Of a DNA stretch of 20,910 nt, positions 1-8,125 are shown piece by piece (the stretch's first letter is position 1; every line of letters begins with the position of its first letter). The translations under genes were made by a program, and so were the position numbers. The notes beneath the pieces were generated by a model that saw nothing but the letters and a program-made list of their open reading frames with translations, was not told where the DNA came from and searched no databases. The DNA lies in the IMG/VR virus record IMGVR_UViG_2671181019_000012, positions 1 to 20,910 of that record. One strand, given 5' to 3'. Source of the DNA: a virus. Taxonomy: Duplodnaviria > Heunggongvirae > Uroviricota > Caudoviricetes.

Positions 1-28
1 AATCCCTACCCGAAATAATACTTATTAG

Positions 29-55
29 AAAAAAACCAGCCTTTGGGGAGGCTGG
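29..55 (-). terminator. tR'-like intrinsic terminator about 100 nt downstream of Q
   Basis: Stem CCAGCC (36-41) / GGCTGG (50-55), 8-nt loop, followed on minus strand by a 7-T run (plus-strand A-run 29-35). Confidence 0.55.
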
Positions 56-155
56 CTAAATCAGGAAACAAGCTGTTATATGATAATAACTACGTTGCGA
101 TTCCAACATTTAAAATGTTAGACTAATGAGAATCAGACAGCAACTTTTCCTTTAA

Positions 156-533
156 TTATTTTGAACAATCAGCATCCATCTCCAATCGGAGATCCAACAC
201 CATCAGCATACCCTCCACTACGCCCTCAGCTTTCTGGAGCATCCTGCCAACCCAACAATCAGATCGCCCATGCTTACGTGCAAGCGCCATAAAAGTCATG
301 CCGCCGACATAATAGTCCACCAATAAATCATGCAAATCGCTGTTGTTCTTTTTCAGACGGGCCATGCACCCGCAAATGATCATCGCGTCATCGTCACAAC
401 ATTGCGGGCGAGATTTTACTTTTGAAGGAATTAATCCCTTAAAACCGGCGGCAATGGACGACCAGGTCACATCTTCATGATTATTAGCCGCCCACGCTCC
501 CCAACGCTCAAGAACCATCTGAATATCACGCAT
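156..533 (-). CDS. Late-gene antitermination protein Q (small Q family, resembles DLP12 QuuD from memory)
   Basis: ORF 156..548; first ATG at 533 preceded by GGAG; translation [20 protein letters not shown]... with a CCDDD...CGC cysteine cluster; followed by terminator at 29-55. Confidence 0.7.
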
Positions 534-755
534 CAACTTACTCCACAAAAATCAGACCAGAACGCCAATTACAAGCAAAAATCAATAAAACAGTATTAGT
601 TGATTGTTATCTCTGACTTCATACTCCTGCTCCTGTCAGGGTTTTGGCGTAATTCCTCAGTATTCGGTAATCGGTCAAAACAGAACTGGGGAAACGATAT
701 AAGCGCAGGCGCATCCAGCGGTGGCGAAGAAGTTCTGCCATATTAAACTCAAACA

Positions 756-863
756 TCATTCATTCCCCATTTCGGTGATGGTCAGTTCCAGCCTCCCACC
801 TTTGGTAGCAAGTGTTGTTTGAGAGATATTCAGTGACTCTCGATATTTTCGTAGGTTGCTCAT
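756..863 (-). pseudogene. Truncated cro-like XRE-HTH remnant (35 codons)
   Basis: ATG at 863 with GGAGGG RBS; MSNLRKYRESLNISQTTLATKGG resembles the N-terminal half of 434-type Cro HTH, then ends after unrelated residues; divergent from cI. Confidence 0.4.
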
Positions 864-979
864 ATGCCCTCCATAGTAACCTCGAATAAAAAATACAATA
901 TGTACTTTCCAAATACAAGCAAAAATACACATTGTGCATGGATGGTTCCAGTACAGAGCGTAATAATAAGGACATGAAA
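864..979. promoter_or_regulatory. Divergent immunity promoter/operator region (pRM/pR-like) between cro remnant and cI
   Basis: Intergenic between divergent HTH genes; repeated AAATACA[AC] motifs at 891-898, 911-918, 923-930; same motif recurs at 3155-3162. Confidence 0.4.
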
Positions 980-1633
980 ATGAAATGGTATGAACTGGCT
1001 AGATCCAGAATGAAAGAGCTCGGCATAACTCAAGAGAAGTTAGCCGAAGAGCTAGGTATGACGCAGGGTGGGATTGGACACTGGTTGCGCGGATCTCGTC
1101 ATCCATCTCTTAGTGATATTGGTGTGGTGTTTAAATACCTTGGTATTGATAACATATCATTCAACCACGACGGGACATTTTCACCTGTTGGCGAATACTC
1201 ATCGGCCCCAGTTAAAAAACAATATGAGTACCCTGTATTTTCTCATGTTCAGGCTGGGATGTTCTCTCCAGAACTCAGAACCTTTACCAAAGGCGATGCG
1301 GAGAGATTGGTAAGCACAACCAAAAAAGCCAGTGACTCTGCATTCTGGCTTGAGGTTGAAGGTAACTCAATGACCGCACCAACAGGTTCCAAACCCAGTT
1401 TTCCTGACGGGATGTTAATTCTGGTTGACCCTGAGCAAGCTGTTGAGCCCGGCGATTTCTGCATAGCCAGACTTGGTGGTGATGAATTTACCTTCAAGAA
1501 ACTGATCAGGGATAGCGGTCAGGTGTTTCTACAGCCACTAAACCCACAATACCCAATGATCCCATGCAATGAGAGTTGTTCCGTTGTGGGGAAAGTTATC
1601 GCTAGTCAGTGGCCTGAAGAGACGTTTGGGTGA
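980..1633 (+). CDS. cI: CI-type prophage repressor (XRE HTH N-domain + LexA/S24 autocleavage C-domain)
   Basis: C-terminal ~130 aa match lambda CI as I recall it ([29 protein letters not shown]...GNSM...FKKL...PEETFG); N-terminal HTH differs from lambda. Start 980 (AAGGA 968-972) or 974. Confidence 0.9.
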
Positions 1634-1679
1634 CAAGAAGCACAGGTATTAACAATAACTTTCATGGTGATACGAATCA

Positions 1680-2222
1680 GTGGCTAAAAAAGGCGACTTT
1701 AAGCCTACCCAGAAAGAGGTTGACCAAGCTATTACTCGCTTGAAAAAAGTAACTTTTAGCGGAGTTACATGGACCGGAAGTGAGGGACGAACCCCAATCT
1801 GGTTTAAATTGGATCTCAAAGCTTTTGATGAAATTGGCAACCCAATCACAGGCATAAGATTTATGCTTCACTGGCGTCCTCCTATCGTTGAAGGGGTGGA
1901 TATAGTGAAGATTTCATTTGTGATGTTTCTTCATGACAGGCGCATTTACGCGCTTGATCCGTACCCTGCGGATAACAAGCCACACCGTAATAAATCTATA
2001 GTGAACCATCCAGATTTTGTTGAGGTGGCTCGAGGTCCTCACTATCACATGTACTTCGAATCAGCTGGGGAAGAAATTGCACTTAAGCTTGAAACGAACA
2101 TCAAGCCAGATGATTTTTTTGGCTACTGGAATTATTTTTGCGAGGCGCTTAATATCATATATGAAGGCAGCCCACCTTTACCTAATCAAGATAAATCAGG
2201 TCAGTTATCATGGGAAATGTAA
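1680..2222 (+). CDS. Hypothetical protein, first gene of rex-position cassette
   Basis: 180-codon ORF with GTG start, 46 nt after cI stop, same strand; overlaps next ORF by 13 nt; no motif I recognise. Confidence 0.55.
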   Translation: MAKKGDFKPTQKEVDQAITRLKKVTFSGVTWTGSEGRTPIWFKLDLKAFDEIGNPITGIRFMLHWRPPIVEGVDIVKISFVMFLHDRRIYALDPYPADNKPHRNKSIVNHPDFVEVARGPHYHMYFESAGEEIALKLETNIKPDDFFGYWNYFCEALNIIYEGSPPLPNQDKSGQLSWEM

Positions 2223-2986
2223 CGTGTTCAACAGTCATATCTAAGCTCGGGTTTGAATGCCACCCAATGAGCGACACGTTGCTGCGCGTTATTAGTCCAT
2301 TCACATACTACGATGATTGTGAGCAGATAAGTGTATTCGTTCAAGAGATGAGTGGTCAGTATAGGGTTACAGACTACTGCGATACATTGATGAATATTGA
2401 ATCACGCGGCATCCACCTGACTAAAAAGAAAATTGATCTGATCAGGTCATCACTCGCTTCGCAAGGAATTTCATTAAATGACTCTGGAGAGATATCTGCG
2501 TGGGCAGATGAGTCGTCCGTTGGACAGGTAACTGCAAATGTTATTCGTGGTGGGATTCTTGCATCCGCCCAAACTGCTGATTGGTATGCTGAGGTCAAAG
2601 ACGATAAGTTCGAAAAATGTGTAATCAGTTACTTAAAATCAGCAGGGCTTGGGAAGCGACTAGTCTTAAAGGAAAAAGTGAAAGGTATTAGTGGGCATAA
2701 CATTACTGTTCCGTTAACGCTAAGGAATGAGTCTCGACTAATACCACCAAAACGCGGGTTTACGGTAAGCCTTGCCAGCAGTAAGGGATGGAATACTGCC
2801 CACTCAACAGTTGGGAAGATTATTGACTTAAGTCAGGTCGTTCCTGACATAAACAATAGATTTGTAATAGTTGACAGCGATGGGTTAACACCTGAGCTAC
2901 AGCAACTATCATTACTATTTAATGATACCGCACGAGTGTTGCCATTCCATACCAGAGACTCTTGGATTGAGTCTCTGGTAGCCTAG
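2210..2986 (+). CDS. Hypothetical protein, second gene of rex-position cassette
   Basis: 258-codon ORF overlapping the previous stop; followed by intrinsic terminator; no motif I recognise. Confidence 0.6.
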   Translation: MGNVTCSTVISKLGFECHPMSDTLLRVISPFTYYDDCEQISVFVQEMSGQYRVTDYCDTLMNIESRGIHLTKKKIDLIRSSLASQGISLNDSGEISAWADESSVGQVTANVIRGGILASAQTADWYAEVKDDKFEKCVISYLKSAGLGKRLVLKEKVKGISGHNITVPLTLRNESRLIPPKRGFTVSLASSKGWNTAHSTVGKIIDLSQVVPDINNRFVIVDSDGLTPELQQLSLLFNDTARVLPFHTRDSWIESLVA

Positions 2987-2991
2987 AAAAA

Positions 2992-3017
2992 CCCGGCCTC
3001 AGCGCCGGGTTTTCTTT
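2992..3017 (+). terminator. Intrinsic terminator closing the cI-cassette operon
   Basis: Stem CCCGGC (2992-2997) / GCCGGG (3004-3009), then TTTTCTTT. Confidence 0.6.
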
Positions 3018-3145
3018 GCCTCACCCCCCACCTAAAGACACATAACCAAATGTATTTATTGAAAAATAAATAGATACAACTCACTAAACCACGCAATTCT
3101 GATCTCTCCTTACATCGCCGAGGCGATACACCCACGCTAAAAAAC

Positions 3146-3231
3146 AACACTATTAAATACAAAGTGTTATAAAAAATCACCCCATTTTAGAACAAATCGT
3201 ATTTATCCAATAGAGTACATATCGTACTATT
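3146..3231. promoter_or_regulatory. Candidate OL/pL operator-promoter region
   Basis: Inverted repeats AACACT (3146-3151) n11 AGTGTT (3163-3168) containing AAATACAA, and GTAC-atatc-GTAC (3215-3227); lies between cassette terminator and N. Confidence 0.3.
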
Positions 3232-3276
3232 TAACCGTCAGCAGGACGCTGGAAGCCAAACGGAACAGACTGGCAG

Positions 3277-3304
3277 GCTCTTTAAACAACGTCGAACTCT
3301 CGAC
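3277..3304 (+). promoter_or_regulatory. Candidate nutL (boxA-like GCTCTTTAAACAA plus boxB-like hairpin)
   Basis: GCTCTTTAAACAA (3277-3289) resembles boxA consensus; adjacent hairpin GTCGA-actc-TCGAC (3291-3304); about 120 nt upstream of N. Confidence 0.35.
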
Positions 3305-3420
3305 TACGTGGCTGAAAAGCCAGATCACCCAACCACATGAGCTGTGGGATGCAATGCCGAAGCAACCGTCTCAGGAGGAGCTTCGAGATTGCATCACCAA
3401 AGTTTATTCGGGAGGAATCT

Positions 3421-3693
3421 ATGTCCAGAAAAACAGAATTTAAAGGCACCTCAGCTTCTCGTCGTAGAGCTCGTCGCGCAAACCTGCAAAGTCAGGAGGC
3501 GATTAGCTCCGACAAGCTACACAGACCAACCCCCTCTCGAGTGGTCTTGCAATGCAAGCGCAAACCAGCAATGAGAGCAGAAGTAATAACACTGACAACG
3601 TTGACCAGAAAATATGAAGGCTCAACTTGTCTTCCAAATGTAGCTCTTTACGCGGCAGGCTACAGGAAATCAAAACAACTGACAGCAAGGTGA
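3421..3693 (+). CDS. N: N-type transcription antiterminator
   Basis: ATG 3421 after GGGAGG; arginine-rich motif SASRRRARRANLQ; C-terminus LPNVALYAAGYRKSKQLTAR closely resembles P22 gp24/N C-terminus as I recall it. Confidence 0.7.
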   Translation: MSRKTEFKGTSASRRRARRANLQSQEAISSDKLHRPTPSRVVLQCKRKPAMRAEVITLTTLTRKYEGSTCLPNVALYAAGYRKSKQLTAR

Positions 3694-3821
3694 CTTGTGT
3701 TGGTCGCCAGAAAATAAAATTAGGCAGCAAACCACTTATTTGAGGTGATATATGGAAGAAGAATTTGAAGAGTTCGAAGAGCATCCTCAGGATGTGATGG
3801 AACAATACCAGGACTATCCGT

Positions 3822-4022
3822 ATGACTACGACTATTGATAAAAATCAATGGTGTGGACAATTCAAGCGATGCAATGGATGCAAGCTGCAATCGGAATGCA
3901 TGGTTAAGCCTGAAGAAATGTTTCCTGTAATGGAAGATGGGAAATATGTCGATAAATGGGCAATACGAACGACGGCAATGATTGCCAGAGAACTTGGTAA
4001 ACAGAACAACAAGGCTGCCTGA
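3822..4022 (+). CDS. Hypothetical small Cys-rich early protein
   Basis: 66-codon ORF with CxxxxxxCxxC cluster. Confidence 0.4.
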   Translation: MTTTIDKNQWCGQFKRCNGCKLQSECMVKPEEMFPVMEDGKYVDKWAIRTTAMIARELGKQNNKAA

Positions 4023-4081
4023 TGGTGGCCTTTATTTTTTGGCCGTAAATAATTTCATGCTTATTACAATCAAGGGGATAT

Positions 4082-4531
4082 ATGGAAGAACAAGCAAACA
4101 AGATTCTCGTAGAACTACTGCAAAAAGCCAGCAATGGAATAGACACGGCTGTTTCATTCAGCCAGGCGCAGATTCCTGATGTTGTTCATCAGTTGCTGCT
4201 ATGGAATATGGTTGACAGTCTGATTAAAACATTAATAGCCATTCTAACAATCCCACTGGTTTTCTGGTTTATGAAGAAGCAGTGCCGAAGAGTTGAGACA
4301 GGTAAAATCGGTGATGAAGGATATTCATGGGAGAAGGGAAATCCCAAATACAGGCCGACAATGGTTTGGGATAGCAAAGGTGATATTAATCTTCTTATCA
4401 TGCCATTAGTTGGAGTTTTGGCTCTGTGGGGGATTTTTATTATTAGTGCAGTAACCAATATGACATGGTTAAAAATTTTGCTGGCTCCAAAGCTTTACCT
4501 TATCGAATATGCAGCATCATTGGTTAAGTAA
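4082..4531 (+). CDS. Small inner-membrane protein, possibly SieB-like superinfection exclusion (position-based guess)
   Basis: ATG 4082 after AAGGGG; two clear hydrophobic helices; sits in early-left region; followed by terminator. Confidence 0.5.
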   Translation: MEEQANKILVELLQKASNGIDTAVSFSQAQIPDVVHQLLLWNMVDSLIKTLIAILTIPLVFWFMKKQCRRVETGKIGDEGYSWEKGNPKYRPTMVWDSKGDINLLIMPLVGVLALWGIFIISAVTNMTWLKILLAPKLYLIEYAASLVK

Positions 4532-5119: not shown

Positions 5120-5677
5120 ATGACTGATTTCACCGGAAGCAATACTCCTGCCGAACATCGCGACAGCTGGCGCACACCACCAGAGATTTTTACTGCGCTT
5201 AATGCAGAGTTCGTTTTTCAACTTGATGCTGCCGCCAGCGAAAAAAACCGACTATGTCGGCTTTTTATCTCACAGGAGCAGAACACATTAACCACTTCAT
5301 GGCCTGAAGCAATGGGATATGCCTCTGGTTATGTCTGGTTGAATCCACCATACAGCAATATTTCCCCTTTTGTGAAAAAGGCAGCCACTGAAAACAAATT
5401 CAGTAGTGTGGGATGTGTAATGTTATTGCCTGCTGACACATCTGTCGGATGGTTTCATGAAGCGATACAAACCGCCAGTGAGGTCAGATTCATCACGGCA
5501 GGACGACTGGCATTTATTAACCCACTCACTGAGAAACCCGTCAGTGGAAATAATAAAGGCTCGATGCTCATTATCTGGCACCCATACCCCCGTACACACT
5601 GCCACTTTACGACCGTTGATCGTGGAGAGTTGATGGCGTTCGGCTCAAGGATTCTTGCCCGTCGGGAGGCTGCATGA
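5120..5677 (+). CDS. Phage-type DNA N6-adenine methyltransferase (orphan)
   Basis: NPPY catalytic motif (WLNPPYSN); size and context typical of phage Dam-family methyltransferases. Confidence 0.85.
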   Translation: MTDFTGSNTPAEHRDSWRTPPEIFTALNAEFVFQLDAAASEKNRLCRLFISQEQNTLTTSWPEAMGYASGYVWLNPPYSNISPFVKKAATENKFSSVGCVMLLPADTSVGWFHEAIQTASEVRFITAGRLAFINPLTEKPVSGNNKGSMLIIWHPYPRTHCHFTTVDRGELMAFGSRILARREAA

Positions 5678-6612: not shown

Positions 6613-6934
6613 GGCCTGTCAGTTTCTCAAGATATCCAGACCTACCGCTACCAACTGGATACGAACAGGCCGCCTACAGGCAACACGCAAAGACCCCACT
6701 AAACTAAAATCTCCTTACCTCACAACACGACAAGCCTGCATTGCGGCGCTTCAGTCTCCGCTGCATACTGTCCAGGTGAGCGCGGGTGATGGCATAACAG
6801 AGGAAAGAAAATGTCACTCTTCCGCAGAGGTGAAATATGGTACGCCAGTTTCACATTGCCGAACGGTAAAAGATTTAAACAGTCTCTTGGAACAAAGGAC
6901 AAAAGGCAGGCGACAGAACTCCATGACAAGCTAA
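6584..6934 (+). CDS. xis: Excisionase (AlpA/Xis-type HTH)
   Basis: [31 protein letters not shown] directly upstream of and overlapping int; ATG 6584 after GAGG. True 3' end uncertain. Confidence 0.55.
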
Positions 6935-7974
6935 AGGCTGAAGCATGGCGGGTCAGCAAACTTGGTGAAATACCTGATATAACGTTCGAGGAAGCGTGTG
7001 TCAGGTGGCTTGAAGAGAAAGCACATAAAAAATCACTGGACGATGACAAAAGCCGGATCGGATTCTGGCTTCAACATTTCGCAGGAATGCAACTAAGAGA
7101 CATTACTGAATCAAAAATTTATTCAGCAATGCAGAAAATGACGAACCGGCGTAATGAGGAAAACTGGAAACTCAGGGCAGAAGCATGCAGAAAAAAAGGG
7201 AAACCTGTTCCAGAATACAAGCCAAAACCAGCGTCTGTTGCAACGAAGGCTACGCATCTTTCATTTATAAAAGCCCTACTAAGAGCCGCAGAGCGTGAAT
7301 GGAAAATGCTGGATAAGGCACCAATTATTAAAGTGCCTCAACCAAAGAATAAACGGATCCGCTGGCTGGAGCCCCATGAAGCACAAAGGCTGATTGATGA
7401 ATGTCCGGAGCCATTAAAGTCTGTTGTTGAATTTGCACTGGCAACAGGCTTAAGACGCTCGAACATCATCAACCTTGAATGGCAACAAATAGATATGCAG
7501 CGCCGGGTGGCATGGATAAACCCGGAAGAGAGTAAATCAAACCGCGCAATCGGCGTTGCGCTGAATGATACTGCATGTCGCGTATTGAAAAAACAAATCG
7601 GGAATCATCACCGTTGGGTATTTGTGTACAAGGAAAGCTGTACCAAACCAGACGGAACGAAAGCGCCAACAGTAAGGAAGATGCGGTATGACGCAAACAC
7701 AGCCTGGAAAGCGGCGCTGAGACGGGCTGGTATTGATGATTTCAGATTTCACGACTTGAGACACACCTGGGCAAGTTGGCTGGTTCAAGCCGGAGTCCCG
7801 TTGTCAGTGTTACAGGAAATGGGAGGCTGGGAGTCTATCGAAATGGTTCGTCGATATGCTCACCTTGCACCTAATCACCTTACCGAACACGCACGGCAAA
7901 TAGACTCGATCCTGAACCCATCGGTCCCAAATTTGTCCCAGTCAAAAAATAAGGAAGGTACTAATGATGTGTAA
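6811..7974 (+). CDS. int: Tyrosine integrase (lambda family; resembles DLP12 IntD from memory)
   Basis: 387 aa; catalytic-region signatures ([16 protein letters not shown]); adjacent to tRNA att core. Confidence 0.9.
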
Positions 7975-8037: not shown

Positions 8038-8125
8038 TAAATTGATCTTGTAAAATCAATACCTATCGAATTTAAATGGATTTTTTGCCACAATATTGCC
8101 ACAGTTCGTTAGGAATCAGACAGAA

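Follow-up and report, generated by a model that had tools for sequence, protein, structure and literature searches.

A mosaic CI repressor, very probably of the CI2c type, in a defective lambdoid prophage

Does a phage repressor that shares its C-terminal part with lambda CI and carries a different DNA-binding domain define a new immunity type, or does it belong to a type that is already known? This question is raised by the cI gene (974–1633, plus strand) of the 20,910-nucleotide stretch of DNA listed as IMG/VR virus record IMGVR_UViG_2671181019_000012 (Caudoviricetes; positions 1 to 20,910; hereafter the window, meaning the whole stretch that was analysed), for which a preliminary description, made from the sequence without database searches, had suggested a recombinant immunity type, RecA-inducible like lambda and with its own operator specificity. 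We consider it very probable (about 0.93) that the gene encodes a lambdoid prophage repressor of the CI2c type, in which a lambda-like, SOS-inducible C-terminal module is joined to a heterologous helix-turn-helix (HTH) domain with its own six operators. Neither the protein nor its mosaic make-up nor the putative operators are new, all being already public and in print.

The C-terminal domain and the distribution of the repressor

The cI gene starts with an ATG and ends with a TGA stop codon (1631–1633), preceded by 219 codons. Two Pfam domains were identified in its product, HTH_3 at residues 11–58 (E 1.9e-10, above the gathering score) and Peptidase_S24 (PF00717) at residues 87–209 (E 1.1e-28). 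The N-terminal DNA-binding domain and linker (residues 1–83) are encoded by 974–1222, with the HTH_3 core at 1004–1147, and the lambda-type C-terminal domain (residues 84–219), delimited by comparison with lambda, by 1223–1633; the latter comprises the end of the hinge and the Peptidase_S24 fold, that is, the dimerisation, cooperativity and RecA-sensing module, and its matches in the PDB are 3bdn, 8gmu and 1f39. For lambda we used the cI sequence of NC_001416 (protein NP_040628; structures 3BDN, 1F39 and 8GMU). Over the full length, BLASTP aligned the two proteins with 151 identities in 212 positions, which amounts to about 64% of the 237 residues of lambda CI.

The near-identity to lambda CI from the linker onward, with AERL for AERW, that the preliminary description had claimed was borne out: 135 of the 136 residues of the C-terminal stretch are identical (99.3%), and the lambda sequence on which the claim rested proved correct when compared with NC_001416. 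The sole amino acid difference in this domain is Leu112, whose codon TTG (1307–1309, plus strand) corresponds to the TGG of lambda Trp129 (mature numbering). At the DNA level the domain is 93.7% identical to that of lambda, with 25 synonymous substitutions and one non-synonymous, and the homology to lambda DNA begins at approximately 1223, where the domain starts. The 25 synonymous differences show that the shared module is old; on the substitution pattern, we read the domain as an independently diverging copy under strong purifying selection and not as a recent contaminant or a laboratory lambda fragment.

The Ala-Gly cleavage site and the Ser and Lys catalytic residues, also named in the preliminary description, align with their lambda counterparts: Ala94-Gly95 (codons 1253–1258) with Ala111-Gly112, the catalytic nucleophile Ser132 (1367–1369) with Ser149, and the general base Lys175 (1496–1498) with Lys192, all on the plus strand. 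With an HTH domain, a Peptidase_S24 domain bearing the Ser/Lys dyad and an Ala-Gly site, the window CI has the features of the self-cleaving repressors of the LexA/lambda CI type. The lambda CI residues found by cryo-electron microscopy to contact RecA (F106, F121, F141, L143, F189, D187 and E188; PMC9926225) all fall inside the segment that is identical to lambda. Since the C-terminal domain has every lambda residue reported to contact RecA*, SOS-induced self-cleavage of the window CI is expected.

It could be argued that the replacement of Trp129 by Leu makes the repressor non-inducible, or gives it altered kinetics, so that it would not be RecA-inducible like lambda: the position lies 17 residues after the cleavage site, and Trp is kept there in nearly all retrieved homologues. 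We find this quite improbable, given that the four homoimmune copies examined (the Stx1-converting phage, ev207, MMC-J-0020 and Nissle 1917, two of which are complete phage genome records) all have Leu, that W129 is not among the published RecA contacts and that the cleavage site and the dyad are intact.

The distribution of the protein answers the question of novelty. In a megablast search with the cI gene, 62 phage records covered at least 80% of the gene at 95–99% nucleotide identity, among them AP005153 (Stx1 converting phage), AP005154 (Stx2 phage II), AJ413274 (Nil2), 2851, 1717, YYZ-2008, the PA series, ev207, ev017 and 2G7b. The 83-residue N-terminal domain recurs with 100% identity in at least 56 phage records, and the full protein, Leu112 included, is 100% identical to those of AP005153, ev207, the MMC-J-0020 prophage and the Nissle 1917 prophage (WP_001302016.1). 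The right operator region (OR) together with the N-terminal domain was found in 776 of 5,426 complete E. coli genomes, i.e. about one in seven, with 802 copies of the N-terminal domain in those 776.

This variant was named CI2c by Smith et al. (2012; BMC Genomics 13:311, PMC3430580), who described the lambda protein, "CI2a", as having the same carboxy terminus and a different amino terminus. The window CI, identical over its whole length to the CI of AP005153 and accompanied by the same operators, belongs to this Stx1-phage type. Among the CI proteins of Stx phages, "Clade I" was reported to be the closest to lambda, with 61% overall identity (Llarena et al., 2022; PMC8951638), a value that fits the window CI (about 64%) as a possible member of Clade I. 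The preliminary description had itself stated that alignment of the N-terminal domain with a known immunity type would refute it; since this domain is 100% identical in known phages and the mosaic is in print, that is what we observed as far as novelty is concerned. The combination of a lambda-type module with a heterologous HTH domain stands, and the novelty of the immunity type does not, the N-terminal domain being known from those phage records and from the work of Smith et al. (2012).

What could still be put forward for a new recombinant of lambda with an unknown phage, specific to one lineage and of an undescribed immunity type, is that the hinge does contain a genuine mosaic joint, with lambda DNA homology from approximately 1223, and that in E. 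coli O103:H2 strain 129 a prophage of lambda immunity has all the sequence to the right of 1223 in common with the window. Nevertheless, the identical protein occurs in phages sequenced since 2001–2003 and in the 776 complete E. coli genomes, the mosaic has been described, and the synonymous differences from lambda mark the shared module as old, so that this explanation, already refuted by the database identities, is close to untenable. We also considered whether the Nissle 1917 "phage repressor" (pr) that protects against lambda (Bury et al., 2018; PMC5987069) is this same cI, and rejected it: the pr amplicon has 410 bp, with primers in the oop/cII region. Nissle 1917 nonetheless carries an identical cI.

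The DNA-binding domain, the operators and the proposed mode of action

The immunity type is set by the N-terminal domain of CI, and the preliminary description regarded the HTH of this domain as unrelated to that of lambda. This could not be maintained: both belong to the HTH_3 fold family, with 28% identity over 53 residues (pairwise BLASTP, E 1e-6; 21% in a global alignment), and a phmmer search of the domain against PDB sequences returned lambda N-terminal domain entries at E values of 4.5e-4 to 3e-3, so that the domain is better described as a distantly homologous HTH_3. The comparison with other repressors that had been suggested as a check confirmed that the domain lies far from lambda, from P22 c2 (30% identity; phmmer E 0.38) and from the 434 repressor (phmmer E 0.25); its identity to 933W cI is 21%, and a tblastn search with both CI domains against the early region of HK022 gave nothing significant. 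The close identity in the DNA-binding domain that would place the window CI in the lambda, P22 c2, 434 cI, 933W cI or HK022 immunity types was not found. In the alignment with lambda, Gln33, Gln44, Glu34 and Asp38 correspond to Gln20, Gln31, Glu21 and Glu25 of the window CI, and Ser45, Ala49 and Asn52 correspond to Gly32, His36 and Arg39. These lambda residues act in base contacts and in the positive-control patch.

We were able to identify six 17-bp sites, three in OR and three in the left operator region (OL), all of which are annotated as putative operators in GenBank AP005153; OR1–OR3 of the window match that annotation exactly, and OL1–OL3 differ from it by 1–2 nucleotides at variable positions. 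OR1 (AAATACAATATGTACTT, 891–907), the best-scoring operator, overlaps the putative PR -10 element and is kept in seven related loci; OR2 (AAATACACATTGTGCAT, 923–939) is supported by the annotation, by a sequence pattern and by a position weight matrix (PWM), and OR3 (CAGTACAGAGCGTAATA, 949–965), the weakest match, overlaps the putative PRM. OL3 (AAATACAAAGTGTTATA, 3155–3171) is likewise supported by the annotation, the pattern and the PWM, OL2 (TAGAACAAATCGTATTT, 3188–3204) overlaps the putative PL -35 element, and OL1 (GAGTACATATCGTACTA, 3213–3229) the putative PL -10 element (TACTAT, 3225–3230). All six are pseudo-palindromes about position 9, with A5, C6, G12 and T13 invariant, and their half-sites, of consensus (A/T)A(A/G)TACA, have AC at positions 5–6 in 12 of 12 and A at position 2 in 11 of 12. 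The pattern ARWACANNNYGT has 8 matches in the 20.9 kb where 1.6 are expected, 7 of them within the six sites; as it was derived from these same sites, its weight lies in its rarity elsewhere in the window. With the half-site PWM, the six operators rank as the top six of 20,894 positions (scores 13–20). The seven related loci, of which two (NCTC9966 and SCU-104) are only approximately 90% identical, keep the sites in place, with changes mostly at central or outer positions. Inverted-repeat finding missed the operators, whose arms are too short. No lambda operator (consensus TATCACCGCCAGTGGTA) was detected anywhere in the window, with up to three mismatches allowed. Neither a lambda-type N-terminal domain nor lambda operators, the marks of lambda immunity, are present.

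The preliminary description had proposed AAATACA half-site repeats in both regions flanking cI. This motif occurs at 891, 911 and 923 in OR and at 3155 in OL, with its reverse complement at 3051, and there are 18 copies on the two strands of the 20.9-kb window; by our own arithmetic from the copy counts, the Poisson probability of three copies in the 110-bp OR region is about 1e-4. The copies at 891, 923 (OR) and 3155 (OL3) do lie within operators. The one at 911 (911–918, minus strand, read there as TTGTATTT) has no inverted partner and a PWM score of 3.8, against 13–20 for the operators, and coincides with a putative PR -35 element, TTGTAT, separated by 17 bp from TATTTT at 895–890, the -35 being annotated in AP005153. 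It is probably a promoter element and not a full operator, and in this respect the half-site proposal stood only in part. The three same-strand copies in OR could suggest that the recognised unit is instead the direct repeat itself, bound in a mode different from that of lambda. However, each of the six conserved sites includes an inverted second half, AC being kept in every half-site, the 911 copy is partnerless, and OL2 and OL1 have no exact plus-strand AAATACA; we judge a direct-repeat mode very improbable. We also noticed an inverted repeat with 11-nucleotide arms (ATGTATTTATT and AATAAATAGAT, 3050–3075, 91% complementary, 4-nucleotide gap) between the terminator described below and OL3; the repeat, conserved in the Stx1 phage, includes the reverse-complement AAATACA at 3051.

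The window has the arrangement of a lambdoid immunity region, with divergent cI and cro around a tripartite OR and a tripartite OL upstream of N, cro being only a 19-codon remnant. From left to right on the plus strand, the operator centres are 32 and then 26 bp apart in OR, and 33 and then 25 bp apart in OL, compared with 24 and 23 bp in lambda. The order runs in the same direction in OR and in OL and is not mirror-symmetric about cI; therefore, the lambda-like spacing of approximately 25 bp pairs OR2 with OR3 and OL1 with OL2. Measured from the operator centre to the first base of the cI ATG, the distances in the window and in lambda are 43 and 42 bp for OR2, 17 and 19 bp for OR3, and 75 and 66 bp for OR1. 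In lambda, CI bound at OR2 activates PRM, whose transcript begins at the cI AUG. The promoter positions given here rest on the AP005153 annotation and on this geometry.

In RefSeq and GenBank, cI is annotated from GTG 938 (231 residues, 12 of them extra), a codon inside OR2 and upstream of the putative PRM. Homologues from other genera begin at the MK(M/T)(K/E)W position. The ATG at 974 (or that at 980) is favoured over GTG 938, because a lambda-like PRM geometry puts the start near 974 and because the homologues of other genera start at MKxxW; the GTG 938 annotation is probably an over-extension of cI.

What was read from the sequence comprises the identities, the domains, the conserved residues for catalysis and RecA contact, and the operators with their conservation; from this we infer DNA binding, promoter positions, PRM activation and cleavage as follows. 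The N-terminal HTH_3 domain (residues 1 to approximately 65) most likely binds as a dimer to the six 17-bp operators, and CI at OR (891–965, between cI and cro) and at OL (3155–3229, upstream of N) would shut PR and PL. CI at OR2 probably activates a lambda-like PRM, since the OR2 spacing is lambda-like and the acidic patch residues Glu21 and Glu25 are kept, giving a leaderless or near-leaderless cI mRNA that starts near 974, and occupancy of OR3 would result in negative autoregulation. Dimerisation and cooperativity between dimers should come from the C-terminal module, in which Ser132 and Lys175 should carry out self-cleavage at Ala94-Gly95 on stimulation by RecA*. Such a repressor would be SOS-inducible like that of lambda and yet heteroimmune to lambda.

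Several points weigh against this proposal. We found in the literature no experiment on the CI2c protein and no footprint or electrophoretic mobility shift assay for CI2c immunity. With OR1 and OR2 32 bp apart (24 bp in lambda), a lambda-like pairwise cooperativity between these two sites is not guaranteed. A scan for sigma-70 consensus promoters flagged no PR, PRM or PL in OR and OL. Leu112 could alter the stability or the cleavage rate of CI. Finally, the deletion of PRE and a G-to-T change in the putative PL -35 element bear on the expression levels in this prophage. That -35 element (3202–3207) reads TTTATC in the window, TTGACC in the Stx1 phage and TTGATC in ev207, and the changed base is also the last base of OL2; the change may weaken PL in this defective prophage.

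The state of the prophage and the neighbouring genes

Is the gene still at work in this prophage? The cro remnant (756–863, minus strand) consists of codons 1–19 of cro in frame with the last 16 codons of rusA (MSNLRKYRESLNISQTTLA-TKGGRLELTITEMGNE), with the junction at 805–807, as a result of a 4.6-kb deletion: the match to homoimmune phages ends to the left of approximately 806, and window positions 1–807 and 806–4200 correspond to 1583514–1584320 and 1588906–1592300 of the MMC-J-0020 genome, with 4.6 kb missing in between. The joint has a 2-bp "TA" microhomology. The deletion takes out the 3' part of cro (with the recognition helix), cII/PRE, O, P, ren, ninB, dam, ninE, ninX and the 5' part of rusA, and the cro-rusA junction was found in none of the 5,426 complete E. 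coli genomes searched. Transcription from PR now runs straight into ylcG (619–759) and the Q antiterminator gene (156–533; Pfam E 2.2e-51). On this gene content, we take the prophage to be crippled and unable to replicate, with cI intact; CI should still be able to confer immunity to homoimmune phages and to gate PL and the shortened PR transcript (ylcG-Q).

The extent of decay invites the opposite view, that cI is a silent relic which is intact by chance and has lost its expression or function: the deletion has removed cro, cII/PRE, O, P and the nin genes, the PL -35 element is weakened relative to its relatives and just about 3 kb of early-left genes lie between N and int. In fact, the open reading frame is full-length, with 100% amino acid identity to the copies in phage genome records, OR1–OR3 are letter-identical to those of the Stx1 phage and maintenance expression from PRM requires no deleted function, which leaves a silent cI improbable. 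An intact CI2c repressor in this defective prophage should make the host immune to homoimmune Stx1 and Stx2 phages (Stx2 phage II and the 2851 type), and the same host should stay sensitive to lambda and to 933W-type phages; this predicted immunity bears on which strains can become toxin producers.

Downstream of cI, in the position of rexA-rexB in lambda, are a gene weakly similar to DUF6978 (1680–2222, plus strand) and a DUF1828 gene (2210–2986, plus strand), which overlap by 13 nucleotides and are probably co-transcribed with cI. This two-gene cassette has weak matches to PDC-M24A/B, a candidate defence system in PADLOC (E 4e-4 and 7e-7), and may be a defence moron expressed in the lysogen. 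Related versions are found after cI in ev207 and Nissle 1917. Directly after the DUF1828 stop codon there is an intrinsic-terminator hairpin (2992–3017, plus strand; CCCGGC/GCCGGG with a 6-nucleotide loop, followed by the T tract TTTTCTTT) that probably terminates the cI operon; a consensus terminator scan missed it, and folding confirmed the hairpin (-17 kcal/mol, z -3.4). The N gene (3421–3693; N_peptide, Pfam E 7.6e-32) lies in a long open reading frame (3337–3693) and probably starts at ATG 3421, as in its RefSeq relatives. Upstream of N, at 3278–3323, we noticed a nutL site with a boxA-like sequence (GCTCTTTAA) and a boxB-like hairpin (TGGCTGAAAAGCCA). A phage Dam methyltransferase gene is present at 5120–5677. 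Further along, two tandem tyrosine recombinase genes (6811–7974 and 8096–9199) are followed by a TrbL/VirB6 gene (10616–12019, minus strand), and trbJ is annotated in the matching genomes; the prophage remnant adjoins another integrated element.

Exchange at the hinge and comparison with known systems

A search with the C-terminal domain only returned 373 proteins, in which a lambda-type C-terminal domain (77–99% identity, among the proteins retrieved) is joined to several N-terminal domains: the lambda type (237 residues); the window type (219 or 231 residues; E. coli and Citrobacter); an MKTEWYELAK type related to that of the window (Enterobacter, Kluyvera and Citrobacter); an MNWYDIAK type (Salmonella); an HTH_19 type (MKTMHEIIGERIK; 212–216 residues); and one more, in the retrieved protein P0074. 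Single-linkage clustering of the N-terminal domains at 45% chained the lambda and window types, and identity to both references was used instead for these assignments. P0005, of the HTH_19 type, and P0006, of the window type, have the same C-terminal domain save for the first two residues of the stretch (FE and YD, respectively), so that similarity in the C-terminal domain does not track the type of the N-terminal domain. The prophage of E. coli O103:H2 strain 129 has a cI of lambda immunity (232 of 237 residues identical to lambda, with lambda operators) followed by the two downstream genes of the window (99.1% nucleotide identity), and its match to the window begins exactly at 1223. On these protein comparisons, the lambda-type C-terminal domain is paired with at least four types of N-terminal domain across the Enterobacteriaceae, and exchange at the hinge is a recurrent event, ordinary for lambdoid phages. 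The retrieved proteins are a clean example of a lambda C-terminal cassette joined at the hinge to several DNA-binding domains; as a discovery the case has little weight, the repressor type being very common and already described.

In E. coli, we counted 1,424 copies of the lambda-type C-terminal domain in 1,202 genomes, with up to three per genome. Compared with the 802 N-terminal domains in 776 genomes, these counts allow co-residence, and the lambda and CI2c C-terminal domains of E. coli are one residue apart. Co-resident heteroimmune prophages could then form mixed CI dimers or oligomers through the shared domain, coupling or mutually destabilising their switches, a consequence that we regard as doubtful.

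How does the window CI relate to the repressors that have been described? The nearest distinct N-terminal domains in the phage collection, those of the C2-type repressors of Salmonella phages L, ST64T and vB_SosS_Oslo, are 52–55% identical and yet represent a different immunity type; some C2-type repressors (P0045 and P0051–P0055) likewise carry a lambda-like C-terminal domain (80–82%). P22 c2 is more distant, with 46% identity in the C-terminal domain in addition to the 30% in the N-terminal domain. The 933W cI belongs to a different protein family, its C-terminal domain aligning over 44 residues only (36%). Within that different family the same phenomenon is observed, as cI1a (BP-4795) and cI1b (933W) share an identical carboxy-terminal half and differ in their amino termini (Smith et al., 2012), as CI2a and CI2c do.

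With lambda itself, the window shares the Ala-Gly site, the Ser/Lys dyad and the RecA-contact residues of CI, the tripartite OR and OL, and a gene pair (in lambda, lysogen-expressed) followed by a terminator downstream of cI; it differs in that its CI is 18 residues shorter and lacks the N-terminal arm of lambda CI, and in the operator core, which is ACA-N3-YGT in the window and TATCACCGC in lambda. The closest system is that of the CI2c Stx phages, with an identical CI sequence, identical OR1–OR3, OL sites 1–2 nucleotides apart and divergent cro and N genes in the same arrangement; it is set apart by the state of the window, where cro is cut short and fused to rusA and where cII, O and P are deleted, and by the genes between cI and OL, which are unlike those of the Stx1 phage and like those of ev207, Nissle 1917 and MMC-J-0020.

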